This document shows, piece after piece, positions 1,095 through 11,386 of a DNA stretch of 11,386 bases; within the stretch, counting starts at the first letter, position 1, and each line of letters opens with the position of its first letter. Position numbers and translations under genes: made by a program. Source of the DNA: a phage; the sequence record PZ049719.1. One strand, 5' to 3'. The notes below the pieces were generated by a model. The model ran no database searches. It was not told the DNA's origin and saw only the letters and a list, made by a program, of their open reading frames with translations.

Positions 1095-1225
1095 ACGCAA
1101 CACTGCCGGGCAGTGCCCCCTTCATGTCGATCGCGTTTCTCCAGCCGCGCTAAACCGGCCAGATAGCTGATGGGTAAACGGCGGTGACTTTATATAAGGG
1201 CGGATATCGACCGGGTGACCACAAC

Positions 1226-1241: not shown

Positions 1242-1272
1242 CCACGGAATACTTGCGGTTGCGTCGCTACAG

Positions 1273-1288
1273 ATTACGAGATCGTCAT
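1273..1288. promoter_or_regulatory. Second related box ATTACGAGATCGTCAT (ATTAC-N6-GTCAT) upstream of the porin gene
   Basis: Same half-site spacing as the 1226..1241 box, with one mismatch in the right arm; 112 bp upstream of the porin ATG. Confidence 0.3.
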
Positions 1289-1399
1289 TTGCCGCTAATC
1301 CTGCGGTCATTTGTAGGGGGAGATCATGGCCAGGCGCTAAAACAAAAAGGCAAGAGACGTCATTCGAACGCTGACATGCCGTATATCAGGAGCATCATC

Positions 1400-2722
1400 A
1401 TGAGCAAAAAGGCCGCCCTTTCACTGACAGCTCTTTCATTGGCACTGGGCGGCGCCTCGGTCTTTGCCCAGTCGGAAACAGCAGCGGAGGGCTTCATCGA
1501 AGGCAGCACGCTATCGCTGATCAATCGCAACTTTTATTTCAATCGAGATTTCCGCGACGGTGAGAACGCAACCGGCAATGGCTACTCTGAGGAATGGGCT
1601 CAAGGGCTGATGGCCTTCTTCGAGTCCGGATATACCCAAGGCTCGGTGGGGATCGGCGTCGACGCCTTCGCCATGCTCGGCCTCAAGCTCGATTCTGGAT
1701 CAGGACGTTCCGGTGCTGGCGGAACCGTCGATCTTCTCCCCTACAATAGCGCCGGCGATGCCGAGGATGACTTTTCTCGAGTAGGGGGGGCCGTGAAAGC
1801 ACGGTTCTTGGGCACCGAGATCAAGGCAGGCGATGTATTTCCCGCTACTCCTGTCGTGCACTTTGGTGACGCACGGCTGCTGCCGGAGTCTTTCAAGGGT
1901 GTCACCGTTGTGAACAACTCGCTGGACGACCTCACCCTCCAGGGCGGCCGCCTGCACGCGATGAGCCAGCCCAATACCAGCAACACGAACGATGACTTCG
2001 TCACGTTTTATGGCGGCGGCGTCGACTCGCCTTGGCTCGGCTACGCAGGCGGCGACTATAGCGTGAACGAAAACCTCAGTCTTAGCCTGTATACCAGCCG
2101 GCTGAAGGATGCCTGGGATCAACATTATTTCGGTGTCTCGGCCACCTATCCACTTTCCGATGCCGTCGTGCTGCTGGGCAGCTTCAACTACTACAAGGCA
2201 ACCGACGAAGGTCGGAAATTGCTGGGCGAGTTTAACAACAGCATCTGGAGTTCCAGTCTGGGTGTCGCCTTCGGCGCGCACACCGTCACGGCGTCGTATC
2301 AGCGAAACAACGGTAACAACGACTTTGACTACTTGCGCCAAGCGGACTCGATCTACCTGAATAACTCCATCCAGTACAGTGATTTCAACTCACCTAAAGA
2401 GCAGTCCTGGATGCTGCGTTATGACCTGAACATGGCGGGTTACGGCATACCTGGGCTTACGTTCATGACTCGCTACGCCCGCGGCTGGGGCGCCGATTAC
2501 AGCAACGCAAATGAGGTATATATGCGCCAAGACGATAACGGCGCGCCTCTGTCCGGACAGAAGCGCTGGGAACGCGACGTCGAAGCACGCTACGTTGTAC
2601 AGACAGGCTCGTTCAAGGACCTCTCTCTGCGGGTGCGCCAGGCTACAACACGGGCGACTGCTTTCGAGTCCGACCTCAATGAGGTTCGATTCATCGCCGA
2701 GTACCCGCTCTCGATCCTGTGA
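1400..2722 (+). CDS. OprD-family (Occ) outer membrane porin
   Basis: The ORF track extends to a TTG at 1253, but the likely start is the ATG at 1400, preceded by AGGAG at 1388..1392. Product begins MSKKAALSLTALSLALGGASVFA (signal peptide) then EGFIEGSTLSLINRNFYFNRDFRDG..., the characteristic N-terminal signature of OprD/Occ porins. Length about 440 aa fits the family. Confidence 0.85.
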   Translation: MSKKAALSLTALSLALGGASVFAQSETAAEGFIEGSTLSLINRNFYFNRDFRDGENATGNGYSEEWAQGLMAFFESGYTQGSVGIGVDAFAMLGLKLDSGSGRSGAGGTVDLLPYNSAGDAEDDFSRVGGAVKARFLGTEIKAGDVFPATPVVHFGDARLLPESFKGVTVVNNSLDDLTLQGGRLHAMSQPNTSNTNDDFVTFYGGGVDSPWLGYAGGDYSVNENLSLSLYTSRLKDAWDQHYFGVSATYPLSDAVVLLGSFNYYKATDEGRKLLGEFNNSIWSSSLGVAFGAHTVTASYQRNNGNNDFDYLRQADSIYLNNSIQYSDFNSPKEQSWMLRYDLNMAGYGIPGLTFMTRYARGWGADYSNANEVYMRQDDNGAPLSGQKRWERDVEARYVVQTGSFKDLSLRVRQATTRATAFESDLNEVRFIAEYPLSIL

Positions 2723-2781: not shown

Positions 2782-2807
2782 AGGCGCCCGTAGGGCGCCT
2801 TTTTTTG
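2782..2807 (+). terminator. Rho-independent terminator downstream of the porin gene
   Basis: AGGCGCCC-GTAG-GGGCGCCT forms a perfect 8-bp GC-rich stem with a 4-nt loop, immediately followed by a run of seven T, about 60 bp after the porin stop. Confidence 0.75.
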
Positions 2808-2853
2808 CTTAAGTGCACCTCCTTGCGCTGCGGGCCAACCAAATGACAGGTAG

Positions 2854-2869
2854 ATTACAAATTTGCAAG
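2854..2869. promoter_or_regulatory. Related box ATTACAAATTTGCAAG upstream of the response-regulator gene; candidate autoregulatory operator
   Basis: Left half-site ATTAC and the AAATTTG core match the 1226 box; the right half-site is degenerate (GCAAG versus GTAAT). Sits between the porin terminator and the regulator start. Confidence 0.3.
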
Positions 2870-3038
2870 ACAGCCCCGCAGGACTTTTACCGCGTTAAAG
2901 TGCTTCCCGCTTCCCTAGGCTGATCTTTACGGCCAGCCTTCCATGCTGGGCAAGCCGCGTTAGTCTTGGCCTAGTTGCTACATGAATAATTTTTTGGTTC
3001 CGCTTACCGCGCACCTCATTGCTGAGTCATCTGAAAAC

Positions 3039-3713
3039 ATGCGCATTCTGGTTGTAGAAGACGAGATTAAAGCTGCGGAATACCTGCAGCAGGGTCTCAT
3101 CGAGTGTGGTTACACGGTCGATTGCGTAAGTGATGGGCTCGATGGATTCCACCTGGCACTGCAGAACGACTATGACATCGTGCTGCTAGACGTGAATCTG
3201 CCAACCATGGACGGGTGGGAGGTGCTCGAACTCATCAGGCGACGTAAGCAGACACGCGTCATCATGCTGACGGCCAATGGCCGCTTAGAGCAAAAGGTCC
3301 GCGGCCTGGAGTCGGGCGCCGACGACTATATGGTCAAGCCGTTCCAGTTCCCCGAGCTGCTCGCTCGTATCCGAACATTGTTGCGGCGAGGCGAGGCGGT
3401 CGCACTCCCGAGCAACCTGCGTGTAGCCGACCTCGAACTCGACCCGGGCCGGCATCGGGCCTACAGGAGCGGTCAGCGTATTGATCTCACCAGCAAAGAA
3501 TTTGCGTTACTGCATCTGCTCATGCGCCGGACTGGCGAGGTTCTGACGCGCACCGAAATAACCGCCCTGGTGTGGGACATCAACTTCGACTGCGATACCA
3601 ATGTGGTGGATGTTGCAATCCGTCGCCTACGGATGAAGGTGGACGAACCCTTTGGCGATCGCCTGATACACACCATTCGCGGTGTCGGCTACGTGCTGGA
3701 GGCGCGGCCTTGA
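3039..3713 (+). CDS. czcR: OmpR/PhoB-family two-component response regulator, heavy-metal type (CzcR/CopR/CusR-like)
   Basis: Translation MRILVVEDEIKAAEYLQQGLIECGYTVDCVSDGLDGFHLALQNDYDIVLLDVNLPTMDGWEVLELIRRRK... contains the receiver domain with the phospho-acceptor Asp in LLDVNLP, followed by a winged-helix output domain (...IRGVGYVLEARP). The ORF track begins at ATG 2982; I prefer ATG 3039 because this family typically starts MRILVVEDE, though neither start has a strong Shine-Dalgarno. The czcR symbol is by context (czcC-like OMF, porin, overlapping kinase). Confidence 0.8.
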   Translation: MRILVVEDEIKAAEYLQQGLIECGYTVDCVSDGLDGFHLALQNDYDIVLLDVNLPTMDGWEVLELIRRRKQTRVIMLTANGRLEQKVRGLESGADDYMVKPFQFPELLARIRTLLRRGEAVALPSNLRVADLELDPGRHRAYRSGQRIDLTSKEFALLHLLMRRTGEVLTRTEITALVWDINFDCDTNVVDVAIRRLRMKVDEPFGDRLIHTIRGVGYVLEARP

Positions 3714-5083
3714 AGCCACTCAGCCTCGCATCGCGTCTCGCGCTTCAAATCACATTGACCGGCGCCGTCTTGGTCGCGCTGTTGATTGCACTGAGCTACT
3801 GGGTACTTGTGCGCCAACTGGAACTGCGCGCCCAGGAGGAAGTGACGGCCAAGCTCTCGCAGATCGATCATGGACTCCTAGAAGACACCAAAGCCCGTAT
3901 GGGCCGCTCCTGGCAACACGCACTGAGCGATACGGTACTCGGCCATGACAACCTTTCGATTACCGTCATCGGCGATAGAGCCAAATCCCCCATTTTTAGT
4001 ATCGGCCGGTTCGCCCATGCGCCGCAGCAGATGGATCTTGTGAACAGAGACGGTGAATACCTAGGCTGGACCACGGAAGACGGCGTGCAGATGCTAACCG
4101 GGCGCAAGCAAATACAGGTCCCGGGACTGGCTCCAATGACGCTTTTACTTACGCAAGATCGCAGTGCCGATCAACTGCTAGTGGCTGCATTCCTGCGCTC
4201 GGCCTTAGTGACTGTGCCGATGCTGCTGATGTTGATCGGGTTGGCTGGATGGCTAGTTGCTAACAACGGTTTGCGACCGCTTCGCAAGTTTCGGGCCTTG
4301 GCGACAAAGGTATCGACGCAGGATCTGTCACCCCGAATCCGCAGCGATCAGCTTCCACTAGAGCTTCAGGAATTGGCGCACAGCCTCAACGTAATGCTTC
4401 ATCGACTCGATGACGGAGTTCAGCAACTGTCACAATTCTCGGACGATGTGGCCCATGAGTTGAAGACTCCCCTAAATAACCTGATAGGCAAGGCGCAGGT
4501 GACATTGGTGCGTGAGCGAAGCAAGGAGCAATATAGGGAAGTGCTCGAATCGTCGGTCGAAGAGCTCGAACGCATGGATCGAATCGTGTCAGACATGCTG
4601 TTTCTCGCCCAGGCCAGCCACGCCAGCCCAGCACTGAAACTCGAACAACTATCCCTGGGAAGTGAGGCGAATCGCGTCTGTGAATACCTCGAAGTCCTCG
4701 CCGAAGAAGCCGGAGTCGCAACGACGGTAACGGGCGATGCCATAGTTCTAGGAAATCGGCTTATGGTCCAACGGGCCATTTCCAACCTGCTATCCAACGC
4801 GTTGCGGCATTCGAATACTGGCAGCACGGTCGAAATTAAGATACTTGAGAAGGACATAGACATCGTCTCGCTGGCTGTCACCAATCATGGCGCGACTATC
4901 GAATCGGATCATCTCCCGCACCTGTTCGACCGCTTTTACCGCGTTAACGGCATACAACCTCGTGGGGCAGGATTGGGGCTAGCTATTGTCCGTTCAGTGA
5001 TGAACCTCCACAAAGGCCACGTGGCCGTCGCCAGCAAAGACGGTCGGACCACATTCGAACTCACCTTTCCTCGGCACGCCTGA
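3710..5083 (+). CDS. czcS: Heavy-metal sensor histidine kinase (CzcS/CusS/CopS-like)
   Basis: Two predicted transmembrane segments flank a periplasmic region. H-box FSDDVAHELKTPLNNL with the His codon at 4454..4456; N-box LLSNALRHS; DRFYRV; G-box GAGLGLAIVRSVMNLHKGHV. The only plausible start is TTG 3710..3712, overlapping the regulator stop (TGA 3711..3713) and preceded by GGAGG at 3698..3702; the first in-frame ATG lies far downstream and would delete the first transmembrane segment. Confidence 0.8.
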   Translation: MKPLSLASRLALQITLTGAVLVALLIALSYWVLVRQLELRAQEEVTAKLSQIDHGLLEDTKARMGRSWQHALSDTVLGHDNLSITVIGDRAKSPIFSIGRFAHAPQQMDLVNRDGEYLGWTTEDGVQMLTGRKQIQVPGLAPMTLLLTQDRSADQLLVAAFLRSALVTVPMLLMLIGLAGWLVANNGLRPLRKFRALATKVSTQDLSPRIRSDQLPLELQELAHSLNVMLHRLDDGVQQLSQFSDDVAHELKTPLNNLIGKAQVTLVRERSKEQYREVLESSVEELERMDRIVSDMLFLAQASHASPALKLEQLSLGSEANRVCEYLEVLAEEAGVATTVTGDAIVLGNRLMVQRAISNLLSNALRHSNTGSTVEIKILEKDIDIVSLAVTNHGATIESDHLPHLFDRFYRVNGIQPRGAGLGLAIVRSVMNLHKGHVAVASKDGRTTFELTFPRHA

Positions 5084-5231
5084 TTCAAAGTGATACGGCT
5101 TGGTACCCACTCCCCATCAGACCAACGCCATACATTAATCTCATAATGCATGCATGGCCTAATCGAGCGTGGGATGGTCTACAAAAACGATGAGTTTAAA
5201 ACAGAGCCGAATCGGCAGAAAGCGATGGTTA

Positions 5232-5247
5232 ATTACTGCTTTGTAAT
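5232..5247. promoter_or_regulatory. Box ATTACTGCTTTGTAAT (perfect ATTAC-N6-GTAAT half-sites) upstream of the small secreted-protein gene
   Basis: Same architecture as the 1226..1241 box; 71 bp upstream of the ATG at 5318. A 6-bp-stem hairpin (5266..5281, TAAGGG-TCAA-CCCTTA) lies between the box and the start codon. Confidence 0.4.
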
Positions 5248-5317
5248 GCGAAGAACATCTTCTGGTAAGGGTCAACCCTTTAATCTAAAGGTATCTACTA
5301 ACCCAAGAGGGTAACAA

Positions 5318-5635
5318 ATGAACCGCCCTGCTAAAGTAATCCTGCCGTTCTTTCTGGCCGCTGCTTCTTCGCTCGCTATGGCTGAAGACGGAGGGGAACT
5401 AACAATGCAGCGCCTTGAGAGTGCGTCAGTAACAAATCCCACCCTTAAAATACTTGTTAAAGAAGGTAAAGTGCTGAGCATAGCACCTGCAGGGACGACC
5501 GGTACGACCGGAATGATTCAGAGTTATAGAACTAACGGCAAAGTTCAAACGTACGAGATGAAGGTTAAGACCCCTGATGGGAAGATCCATACGGTTGAGT
5601 TTTTGAGCGCCCCGGTTGGTATAAACAACGGCTAA
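5318..5635 (+). CDS. Small secreted/periplasmic protein of unknown function (105 aa, signal peptide plus beta-rich mature domain)
   Basis: ATG 5318 preceded by AGAGGG. N-terminus MNRPAKVILPFFLAAASSLAMA is a typical Sec signal peptide with an A-x-A cleavage site. The mature part (...GKVQTYEMKVKTPDGKIHTVEFLSAPVG) is Thr/Gly/Lys-rich, looks beta-stranded and has no Cys/His metal motif. It sits in a visibly A+T-rich segment between the kinase and the MerR gene. Family not recognised; PepSY-like or DUF2790-like are only guesses. Confidence 0.6.
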   Translation: MNRPAKVILPFFLAAASSLAMAEDGGELTMQRLESASVTNPTLKILVKEGKVLSIAPAGTTGTTGMIQSYRTNGKVQTYEMKVKTPDGKIHTVEFLSAPVGINNG

Positions 5636-6064
5636 CAGGCCAGTAAGCCCCAACGCCATTAATTTAATGCACGCGTCCTCGCTAATGCCAGCGAGAATTC
5701 CACAAGCCTCAACTTCCCGCCCATCACTGCAATTAGCCCGCAGTGATACGAGTTGTCGTTCGAGTGACTGCAGAGCGGTTATCTGCGACTTGACTTGAGA
5801 AATGTGTTCATCGAGCAAGGCATTAACGGCCGTACAAGGCTGGCGAGGGTCATCCTGGTAGCGTTGGAGTGCGTGAATCTCTGGAAGTGACAGATTCAGG
5901 ATTCGGCAGCTCCGGATGAAGGCTAGCCGCTCGCCATGCTTCTCGGTGTAGACACGATAGCCGTTCGCCTGGCGATCAGGCGGTGGCAGCAAGCCCTGCT
6001 GCTCATAGAAGCGGATCGTCTGTGTATCAATCCCTATTAGCCTTGCTAATTGACCAATGCGCAT
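5426..6064 (-). CDS. MerR-family metal-responsive transcriptional regulator (CadR/ZntR/PbrR-like) with an aberrant 3' extension
   Basis: N-terminus MRIGQLARLIGIDTQTIRFYEQQGLLPPPDRQANGYRVYT is the MerR helix-turn-helix; a dimerisation helix follows, with Cys at residues 77, 112 and 121 in the pattern of the CadR/PbrR/ZntR metal site. The ORF has no stop until 5426, giving 212 aa against roughly 135-150 aa typical of this group. The last 65-80 codons lie antisense to the small-protein gene and look non-native (...FTFFNKYFKGGICY). The coordinates are those of the open frame; the true functional 3' end is uncertain. Confidence 0.7.
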   Translation of the reverse strand: MRIGQLARLIGIDTQTIRFYEQQGLLPPPDRQANGYRVYTEKHGERLAFIRSCRILNLSLPEIHALQRYQDDPRQPCTAVNALLDEHISQVKSQITALQSLERQLVSLRANCSDGREVEACGILAGISEDACIKLMALGLTGLLAVVYTNRGAQKLNRMDLPIRGLNLHLVRLNFAVSSITLNHSGRTGRPCRCYAQHFTFFNKYFKGGICY

Positions 6065-6156: not shown

Positions 6157-7047
6157 ATGAGCAAGTCCGATGGTCCCTGCGGCTGCGATGCGACACCAGC
6201 CGCCGATGCCGGTGTGCAAAATCATTCCGATACGACGGGGCAATGGGTCAGTGTTTACGCCGTGCCCAAGATGGATTGTCCATCAGAAGAGCGAATGATC
6301 CGCTTGGCGCTGAATAGTTTGGACGGAATTCGGAAACTGACTTTTGATTTATCGGACCGTCGATTAGACGTCATGCATGACGGGGCCGTTGAGCCCATAA
6401 CTACAAAGCTGGCGGCGTTAGGGCTAGGCGCCACACTTCAGAAAACCGTCACTGCAGACCCGGAGATGATTAAAGCCGTCGAGAATTCGGCGGAATCTAC
6501 ACAGGAGTCCCGTTCCCTACGTTTACTGTTAGGCATCAACGCCTTCATGTTCGTGGTAGAGATGACTGCTGGTCTGGTCGCCAGGTCCGCGGGTCTGATT
6601 GCCGACTCGCTCGACATGTTCGCTGACGCGGCAGTGTACGGCCTAGCCCTTTATGCGGTGGGGCGTAGCGTCAGCCTGCAGGTGCGTGCTGCACACCTTG
6701 CTGGTGTGCTCCAGCTGATTTTGGCTCTCGGCGTGCTCGTAGAGGTATTTAGACGCTTTGTATTCGGCAGCGAGCCCGAGTCGCTGATAATGATGGCCGT
6801 CGCATTCCTGGCATTGCTCGCCAACATGGGTTGTTTGCTGCTGATTTCCAAACACAGGGAAGGCGGGGCCCACATGAAAGCGAGCTGGATATTTTCCGCC
6901 AATGATGTGGTCATCAACGTGGGCGTCATAGTCGCCGGAGCGCTCGTCGCTTGGAGTGGATCCAACTACCCAGACCTGATTATCGGTACTGTTGTGGGAT
7001 TCATCGTTCTCAACGGCGCTCGGCGTATTCTGGCGCTCAAGAGCTGA
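6157..7047 (+). CDS. CDF-like cation efflux membrane protein with N-terminal metal-binding domain; likely target of the adjacent MerR-family regulator
   Basis: ATG 6157 with GGAG 7 nt upstream. The N-terminal ~100 aa are soluble and carry a CGC motif (DGPCGCDATP) and an HMA-like loop VPKMDCPSEERMIRL. Six hydrophobic segments follow, including a CDF-like acidic motif in TM2 (IADSLDMFADAAVYG). The protein ends right after TM6, so it lacks the usual cytoplasmic C-terminal CDF domain. Confidence 0.75.
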   Translation: MSKSDGPCGCDATPAADAGVQNHSDTTGQWVSVYAVPKMDCPSEERMIRLALNSLDGIRKLTFDLSDRRLDVMHDGAVEPITTKLAALGLGATLQKTVTADPEMIKAVENSAESTQESRSLRLLLGINAFMFVVEMTAGLVARSAGLIADSLDMFADAAVYGLALYAVGRSVSLQVRAAHLAGVLQLILALGVLVEVFRRFVFGSEPESLIMMAVAFLALLANMGCLLLISKHREGGAHMKASWIFSANDVVINVGVIVAGALVAWSGSNYPDLIIGTVVGFIVLNGARRILALKS

Positions 7048-9625: not shown

Positions 9626-10870
9626 CTAGTGATCATCCTGACTCTCACAAAGTTTGAGATTGGGATTATCCAGCATCTCAGTTGTGAATACGTCGCCGGG
9701 TTTTTTGAGCATATAACCCTTCAGTGTTTTCGTTTTACGAGGTCCAAAGACTTCGCACGTCCAGATGTTATGTCCGTTGCTCTTCTTAACGTGAAGCTTC
9801 AGCTTTTCGAACGACTTTTGGACCTGCAGCCATGGCTGTCCTTCGCCAGCCCTCGCTGAGAAGAGGGTCGGATGCTCTTGGGCATACCTTCTGAATATTT
9901 CAGGAGTCACCAGAAAAGCCGTGCCGTTGACGGTGTGAACCTTGGCTTTTGCATCATTGATAATGATCTTGTGGGTTCCTACACCCACTTTTAGCCAGTG
10001 CATGAAAAGGTGACCTAGCGTGTCGCCGATCGGGCCAGCGATGGTAGCGGTCGCGGCAGTGTCTGACTGAGCTTCGACCTCGGACGCCGCCGGCATCGCC
10101 GGGGCGGGTACCGAATTGGTCGGCGCGTCACGCATATCCATCAGATCCAGAAGGTAGTCCGTATCATCTACCTCATCGGGTTGCGGTCCATGGTCACTTG
10201 CGGGTTCGTCCCCTTGAGGCTCTGCCGCAACGGCATCGCCGCCCCCGGCAGTAAGGCTGGGCTTTTCCTCCTGCGCTTCGGAAGCTGCGGCAGGGGCTGC
10301 TTCTTCGTTGAGGACTTGCACCGAGCCGCCAAAAGGCTCCGGGCGGTCTTCGCCAGCTGCCCATATGAGTGAAGGTGAAACTCTCAAGAACGTGAATGCG
10401 TTCTTCCATCCCGTAGGGCTCAGGATTTCGGCATCCCAAATAGCTTTGCCAGCAGGATTCGCAACAATCAGGCCGTTATCCTGAAAGACATTGAAGAGAG
10501 TGGAGTTGCGGTCCGGAACACCCTCAATCCCTTGGCTGAGGAGGTGAGCACGCAGCCGATCCGAAACGGTCTTGCTGACCAGCCAGATCGCATCGGCCGT
10601 GATCCAGCCATCGGAAGCGTCTGGCTGATTCAACTTGAGCTCGTTCTTCACCAGGTAGCGCAGCCCATCGAGGAGCTGACGCTGAAGAGTGTTACGCGGT
10701 GCTGCCACAGCTCTGTCTGGATTGCCGCCAAGCTCATGGGCGACCGACGCCTGGTCAGACCTTACAACGATGTCCCCAAGAACCCCAGCGTGCTCAAACT
10801 GGCCAGCCAGTACGTACAGCAAAGCACCCCAGAGCTCTGGATTGGATGAGATCCATCCGATACCATTCAA
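9626..10870 (-). CDS. Hypothetical protein with a long acidic Ala/Pro-rich linker; possibly a 5'-truncated remnant of an ICE-type relaxase (TraI_2_C-like C-terminal region)
   Basis: The frame opens with TTG directly after an in-frame stop at 10871..10873, and the first internal ATG is about 245 codons in, so an intact N-terminus is doubtful. The upstream sequence in the same frame translates to non-protein-like text. A low-complexity segment (about 10000..10300) separates an N-terminal region from a basic C-terminal domain (...WTCEVFGPRKTKTLKGYMLKKPGDVF...). The resemblance to conjugative relaxase C-termini is a recollection, not a search result. Confidence 0.4.
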   Translation of the reverse strand: MNGIGWISSNPELWGALLYVLAGQFEHAGVLGDIVVRSDQASVAHELGGNPDRAVAAPRNTLQRQLLDGLRYLVKNELKLNQPDASDGWITADAIWLVSKTVSDRLRAHLLSQGIEGVPDRNSTLFNVFQDNGLIVANPAGKAIWDAEILSPTGWKNAFTFLRVSPSLIWAAGEDRPEPFGGSVQVLNEEAAPAAASEAQEEKPSLTAGGGDAVAAEPQGDEPASDHGPQPDEVDDTDYLLDLMDMRDAPTNSVPAPAMPAASEVEAQSDTAATATIAGPIGDTLGHLFMHWLKVGVGTHKIIINDAKAKVHTVNGTAFLVTPEIFRRYAQEHPTLFSARAGEGQPWLQVQKSFEKLKLHVKKSNGHNIWTCEVFGPRKTKTLKGYMLKKPGDVFTTEMLDNPNLKLCESQDDH

Positions 10871-11133: not shown

Positions 11134-11386
11134 TCATTGGCGCCTAGCCCACGGGGCAAACAGGGCGCGCAGCAGGCGGGATAAGAACTTGGGTACATCA
11201 ATCTCGGCGATCAGCAGAGCTGAAAAGATGAGAGCTGCACCGGCCAGGGTTCTTCCATCCAAGGTTTCGCCAAGGAGCATCGCTCCCGCGAATGCTGCGA
11301 AGATGGGCTCGAACAGGTAGGTCAGGGCTACTTTTTCTTCTTCGAGATACTTCTGCGCAGCACTCTGAACCGCGTACATGAAGGCT
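11134..11386 (-). CDS. EamA/DMT-family transporter, C-terminal part only; N-terminus beyond the window end
   Basis: The minus-strand frame is open from the window end to the stop at 11134..11136. Translation ...LTYLFEPIFAAFAGAMLLGETLDGRTLAGAALIFSALLIAEI... is the characteristic last transmembrane region of EamA/DMT proteins. The Met at 11379 used by the ORF track is internal. Confidence 0.65.
   Translation of the reverse strand, partial: AFMYAVQSAAQKYLEEEKVALTYLFEPIFAAFAGAMLLGETLDGRTLAGAALIFSALLIAEIDVPKFLSRLLRALFAPWARRQ

Follow-up and report, generated by a model that had tools for sequence, protein, structure and literature searches.

The junction between the response regulator and sensor kinase genes described here most probably (we put the figure at about 0.75) belongs to a two-component operon in which the kinase is translated from TTG 3710..3712, a codon that overlaps the TGA stop of the regulator and is positioned by a GGAGG motif, with most initiation occurring through termination-reinitiation. 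According to this reading, the TTG would be read as formyl-Met, and the GGAGG carried by the Leu-Glu-Ala codons of the regulator, 7 nt upstream, would position the ribosome. Most of the kinase would probably come from ribosomes that, on completing the regulator, step back one base and start again on that mRNA, a termination-reinitiation aided by Shine-Dalgarno contact. TTG being a weaker start codon, less kinase than regulator would be made. The features concerned are the following, with coordinates given in the window, i.e. the whole stretch of DNA that was analysed (11,386 nt):

3039..3713, + strand: response regulator gene, 224 aa, OmpR-type, heavy-metal subfamily (Response_reg and Trans_reg_C domains, TIGR01387)
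3698..3702, + strand: GGAGG, Shine-Dalgarno-like, within the Leu-Glu-Ala codons of the regulator (CTG GAG GCG), 7 nt before the kinase TTG
3710..3712, + strand: TTG taken as the kinase start codon, whose T is the third base of the final sense codon of the regulator, CCT (Pro)
3711..3713, + strand: TGA stop codon of the regulator, whose TG is common to the kinase start (TTGA, '-4' spacing)
3710..5083, + strand: heavy-metal sensor histidine kinase gene, 457 aa, with HAMP, HisKA and HATPase_c domains (Pfam, TIGR01386)

The operon and its regulator-kinase junction

The regulator harbors Pfam Response_reg and Trans_reg_C domains and scores 339.8 bits against NCBIfam TIGR01387 (cut-off 279.2), position 1 of the profile corresponding to residue 3 when residues are counted from ATG 3039 (MRILVVEDE), which we take as its start. 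The start of the longest open reading frame, ATG 2982, was rejected, as the relatives present substitutions and frame-breaking indels between 2982 and 3039. The kinase scores 436.7 bits against TIGR01386 (cztS_silS_copS; cut-off 292.55), its residues 3-454 covering profile positions 1-457 of 457, and contains the Pfam domains HAMP (182-234), HisKA (240-302) and HATPase_c (350-455). Over residues 39-155 it matches the periplasmic CzcS sensor domain from P. aeruginosa (5gpo, E = 1.8e-6), and hydrophobic stretches are present on both sides of this region, as read from the translation by eye. The full-length profile match, the expected modules and the adjoining TIGR01387 regulator upstream on the same strand all fit the heavy-metal sensor histidine kinase family, and close relatives are named CzcS or CusS in their sources. 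To judge from the sequence, the junction is internal to a two-gene heavy-metal two-component operon, in which an OmpR-type regulator is followed by a membrane kinase of the CzcS/CusS/CopS type. The neighboring genes code for an OprD-family porin upstream and for a CadR-type regulator and a CDF transporter downstream. A relaxase remnant is also present within the window. A Pfam search of the small open reading frames at the window ends and of the czcS-cadR spacer gave no match besides an EamA fragment (11134-11379), and a megablast of the operon against the plasmid records of PLSDB gave none.

Positions 3696..3715 of the window read CTGGAGGCGCGGCCTTGAAG. The regulator frame (...GYVLEARP*) is closed by TGA 3711..3713, while a 457-codon open reading frame in frame with TTG 3710 ends at 5083 and has AAG (Lys) as its second codon, so that the two genes overlap by 4 nt. 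A sequence-only reading of this DNA had placed the GGAGG, the TTG and the TGA exactly where a direct reading of the window finds them. The combined 16-nt motif GGAGGN7TTGA occurs once in the window, whereas 0.13 occurrences are expected from shuffled sequences; because 23 of 200 shuffles also contain at least one match, the motif alone is not beyond chance, and its weight comes from its position and conservation.

This conservation was assessed by comparing the DNA of related loci (80 from genomes and 47 from metagenomes), in each of which the regulator stop and the kinase start were located. Wherever the junction is readable (117 loci), the kinase start and the regulator stop overlap as NTGA, namely TTGA in 68, ATGA in 48 and GTGA in one. 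The 68 TTGA loci make up the entire clade at 78% kinase identity or more, with members in Stutzerimonas, Halopseudomonas, Ectopseudomonas, Pseudomonas and metagenomes, and the ATGA and GTGA loci correspond to relatives at 47-57%. In two ATGA loci (L068 and L079), the overlap is shifted 9 codons upstream together with an extended kinase N-terminus. The TTG start, its overlap with the regulator stop as TTGA and the GGAGG inside the regulator coding sequence, all proposed earlier from the window alone, are conserved in relatives, and the comparison argues that the NTGA overlap is a conserved feature of homologous pairs and not an accident. CCT-TGA/TTGA is found again in a second and unrelated lineage (P0099; 47% identity), and since its nearest relatives in the set (L062, L063 and L065) have CAA-TGA/ATGA, the switch to TTG must, on this sampling, have occurred at least twice in the family.

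Among 57 distinct junction sequences, GGAGG is present at 7 nt in 42, a shorter Shine-Dalgarno-like core lies at 5-8 nt in 11, and four have neither. As the motif could merely follow from the conserved LEA residues, synonymous codon usage was compared. In 63 of 65 distinct regulator genes, the Glu of the motif is specified by GAG, a codon that accounts for 42% (312/741) of their other Glu codons (binomial p about 1e-21, in a test that ignores shared ancestry among the sequences). Given this large enrichment over the background, the silent site appears to be selected to preserve GGAGG.

The start codon of the kinase

Downstream of a stop at 3482, the frame of the kinase is open and includes seven other potential starts: GTG 3572 upstream of the junction, and TTG 3755, TTG 3770, TTG 3782, GTG 3809, GTG 3842 and ATG 3899 downstream. 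As a statement about the window, the original claim of this TTG as the sole possible start was therefore too strong, the alternatives being ruled out by comparison with relatives. A Shine-Dalgarno motif at the proper distance is found only at 3710; GTG 3842 has an AGGAGG just 2 nt away, and the other six have none at a usable distance.

Counted from the TTG, the kinase begins (M)KPLSLASRL, and nearly all of the best 120 homologues start with M-[KR]-x-x-S-L-x-x-R-L, an MKPxSLxxRL N-terminus being common to relatives down to 47% identity. TTG 3710 is the codon that aligns with the starts of the homologous proteins, and no better in-frame start was found. The alignment of the kinase N-terminus with orthologues, which had been suggested as a check, agrees with TTG 3710, and instead of favoring another start, which would have spoken against the proposal, the orthologues back this one. 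In the TTGA clade, the variable sites in kinase codons 2-21 are distributed as 6/1/13 over codon positions 1/2/3, with synonymous-only change in 11 codons and a residue change in three, which carries the signature of a translated frame beginning directly after the TTG.

An initiation elsewhere in the frame, either at GTG 3572 or at one of the six downstream codons, is very improbable. Such codons do occur, a JGI gene call in a 91% relative uses a TTG 20 codons downstream, and a 394-aa call from ATG 3899 is on record. However, GTG 3572 is excluded because an in-frame start upstream of the junction NTG is absent, the GTG or its open frame being missing, in 38 of 62 distinct relatives; eight of these belong to the TTGA clade, one of them having a kinase 99.8% identical to that of the window. 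Starting downstream would remove the conserved MKPxSLxxRL stub and would truncate or eliminate the first hydrophobic segment, which is under amino-acid constraint, and apart from GTG 3842 with its AGGAGG 2 nt away these codons lack a usable Shine-Dalgarno motif. The TIGR01386 profile itself starts at residue 3 counted from the TTG. TTG 3710 as the kinase start is thus well supported by the profile start, the homologue N-termini and the conservation of the junction.

Under the name 'heavy metal sensor histidine kinase', the exact 457-aa protein is found in NCBI, UniRef, ENA and Logan, on 893 contigs, whereas versions of this sequence with 503, 442, 437 and 433 aa are absent from a collection of 15 billion proteins. 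The two 394-aa database proteins (P0010 and P0011) were discarded as evidence of miscalling, the contig of P0010 beginning inside the gene. One real miscall was found, namely the JGI gene mentioned above (P0009, locus L129), whose TTGA junction is intact. The idea that annotation pipelines often misplace this start is not borne out by these records, in which the 457-aa call is the standard one. They also bear on an error of sequencing or assembly near 3705..3715 that would have created a false frame or overlap, a possibility raised with the original observation; nothing was found in its favor, and it is extremely improbable because the same junction is present in 68 independently assembled loci and the exact protein on so many contigs. 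The main value of the analysis lies in annotation, where it confirms the 457-aa model of the kinase, starting at TTG, and shows the shorter calls to be wrong.

Possible translational coupling and the choice of TTG

Among co-oriented genes of bacteria and archaea, no spacing is commoner than NTGA, or '-4', which supports coupling experimentally; the two mechanisms proposed are that an inhibitory structure is unfolded and that the terminating ribosome reinitiates (PMC12548453). Coupling is a plausible fit to the anatomy of the junction. The minimum-energy fold in the window pairs 3699-3707 with 3731-3739, but its local stability is not greater than that of shuffled sequences (z = -0.93), and 20 diverse relatives have next to no consensus structure in common (-3.6 kcal/mol, with one covarying pair). 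On these grounds we rejected a hairpin that would mask the Shine-Dalgarno motif and so favor coupling through its unfolding, other members of the clade being moreover predicted to fold differently. Because no convincing inhibitory structure was found, reinitiation aided by contact with GGAGG would be the more likely route, if coupling exists.

The TTG start and the overlap could also be real with no functional coupling, ribosomes binding GGAGG de novo and the 4-nt overlap being simply the most easily evolved compact spacing. We consider this the minority possibility, although a serious one. A good Shine-Dalgarno motif at near-ideal spacing, apparently under selection, would also permit independent initiation, the start site is not occluded by a conserved or unusually stable structure, and the abundance of -4 spacing may largely reflect its ease of origin (PMC12548453). 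Nevertheless, NTGA is kept in every readable junction (117/117) across deep divergence, even where the kinase is extended by 9 codons, and an overlap of stop and start, of another length, is kept in the E. coli relatives too (11 nt in cusRS, 1 nt in hprRS). Efficient coupling at -4 spacing has been reported in experiments summarised in PMC12548453, and the start site would be physically covered by a ribosome terminating at 3713. Termination-reinitiation remains our preferred reading.

In E. coli, about 3% of genes begin with TTG, compared with about 4% in a survey of 79 genome and plasmid sequences, and initiation at TTG and GUG in this species reaches 10-100% of that at AUG (bioRxiv 10.1101/063800). 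The use of TTG here would be expected to lower the synthesis of the kinase relative to that of the regulator. This would agree with the excess of regulator over kinase that is usual in two-component systems such as EnvZ/OmpR.

The final sense codon of the regulator is GAA, GGA, CAA, AAA, CCA, ACA, AAG, CCT or CAT across the family. The last residue therefore differs among relatives (E, G, Q, K, P, T or H), but the third base always completes an ATG, GTG or TTG. In the window, a silent change of CCT to CCA or CCG would convert the TTG to ATG or GTG. Because the kinase start opens on a synonymous third position in the last codon of the regulator, the choice of kinase start codon would be free to evolve without altering the regulator protein. 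Throughout the TTGA clade, represented by 22 distinct regulator sequences at 82-100% nucleotide identity, the junction T is invariant, even in a lineage where the adjacent base has changed (CCT to CAT). Since these sequences show no variation at 16 of 79 comparable four-fold sites (20%) either, the retention of T is weak evidence of selection for TTG as such, and we do not use it as proof.

There is a little under an even chance that the TTG has no regulatory meaning and is a neutral or slightly deleterious variant of an ancestral ATGA, fixed once in the ancestor of the clade and spread along with it. All the 47-57% relatives except one have ATGA, and the TTGA clade is close (median 91% nucleotide identity in the regulator), a fifth of its four-fold sites being invariant regardless. 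Its members also lie in mobile-looking contexts, as indicated by the relaxase remnant and by the occurrence of the same kinase in several genera. On the other hand, TTG is kept in sequences as distant as 78% identity in the kinase and 88% in the regulator, among them the CCT to CAT lineage that retains the T, and the second lineage acquired the same CCT-TGA/TTGA; no reversion to A or G was seen among the clade sequences, though both would be silent in the regulator. More tentatively, the TTG may be held by selection as a fixed low kinase:regulator setting, coded in the silent third base of the last codon of the regulator and switchable between ATG, GTG and TTG with both proteins unchanged. Such a setting would have been adopted at least twice and kept through a clade apparently moving between genera with metal-resistance islands.

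Beyond annotation, the junction offers a small, clean example of how synonymous-codon selection inside an upstream gene may maintain a ribosome-binding site, as suggested by the GAG bias, and a second one of how a silent change in an upstream gene can alter the strength of the start codon downstream. Neither point is new in principle.

Comparison with known systems

The arrangement is ordinary, already annotated, and within known kinds. It resembles the NTGA overlaps of co-oriented genes (PMC12548453), in which two bases belong to both the start and the upstream TGA, so that an A is imposed at the head of the second codon, and the Shine-Dalgarno motif lies inside the upstream gene; it differs in that N is T, which gives the rarest in use among the canonical three start codons. 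In E. coli, CusRS and HprRS are the closest characterised enterobacterial homologues, and they also have a regulator followed by a kinase with overlapping stop and start codons. The catalytic core of the window kinase matches HprS (9epn, E = 1.5e-44). However, the annotated overlaps are of 11 nt for cusR/cusS, with an ATG start, and of 1 nt for hprR/hprS, compared with 4 nt here. The arrangement also resembles the CzcRS/CopRS-type heavy-metal systems of Pseudomonas (TIGR01387 and TIGR01386), which share the domain architecture, the MKPxSLxxRL start of the kinase, the GYVLEAR-x C-terminus of the regulator, the 4-nt overlap and the embedded GGAGG. The 47-57% relatives have ATGA (48 loci) or GTGA (one locus), whereas the clade of the window has TTGA, and in this comparison the sole particular feature is the use of TTG by that clade where its relatives use ATG.

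Genes and signals upstream of the regulator-kinase pair

Directly 5' of the two-component genes, and on the same strand, lies an OprD-family porin gene, followed by two elements that separate it from the regulator gene:

1253..2722, same strand as the two-component genes: OprD-family porin ORF (Pfam OprD, E=8e-150)
2782..2800: strong hairpin resembling a terminator, 3' of the porin gene, with the sequence AGGCGCCC-GTA-GGGCGCCT and a T run after it
about 2845..2870: partly conserved ATGACAGGTAGATTACAAATTTGCAA segment, downstream of the hairpin and 5' of the regulator gene

The longest porin ORF opens at TTG 1253, and because the OprD profile match begins only at its residue 79, the true start is probably located further downstream. 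The longest regulator ORF opens at ATG 2982; the stretch 2982..3039 is not conserved and carries frame-breaking indels in the relatives, and the conserved start is ATG 3039 (MRILVVEDE), which is not preceded by any obvious Shine-Dalgarno motif. The ATGACAGGTAGATTACAAATTTGCAA segment could represent a binding box for the regulator itself.

The cadR gene and its surroundings

Beyond the kinase, three further features were identified:

5318..5635, plus strand: ORF encoding 105 aa, its N-terminus (MNRPAKVILPFFLAAASSLAMA) resembling a signal peptide, in the spacer between the kinase gene and cadR
6064 (start) to 5426 (ORF end), minus strand: CadR-type regulator gene cadR, with a lost stop codon at 5660..5662
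6157..7047, divergent from cadR: cation-diffusion-facilitator (CDF) transporter whose N-terminus carries a heavy-metal-associated (HMA) domain

Comparison with two related loci, L129 (a 91% relative) and L006, shows that the cadR stop codon has been lost in the window: the protein of these relatives ends in ...EDACIK followed by TGA, whereas the window has TTA at this position (minus strand). The reading frame therefore stays open through a further 77 codons, unrelated in sequence, giving a product of 212 aa versus roughly 134-139 aa in the relatives. An identical 212-aa call is present on a metagenome contig (L128), whose kinase segment is also identical to that of the window. The kinase stop and the cadR 3' end are separated in the window by about 0.5 kb (about 5101..5626) missing in L129 and L006, where the spacer measures only about 90 nt; a Pfam search with the 105-aa ORF in this spacer gave no match. 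The transporter scores under the NCBIfam CDF cut-off (67.9 bits versus 82.35).

A relaxase ORF, and a second TTGA junction

A further ORF was recognized by profile matches:

9626..10870, minus strand: MobH/TraI_2-type relaxase ORF

The N-terminal profile is matched in its last part only (TraI_2 positions 184-324 of 324, MobH 181-340 of 340), and the C-terminal domain is also matched. The ORF thus looks N-terminally truncated, which suggests that the remnant of an integrative conjugative element adjoins the metal-resistance genes.

The TTGA overlap itself occurs independently a second time, on another branch of this family: a metagenome locus (L132, 47% kinase identity) has a CCT-TGA/TTGA junction at its own positions 1196..1204, preceded by a weaker motif (GGAAG), with genes for an OprD-family porin and an outer-membrane efflux (OEP) protein nearby.
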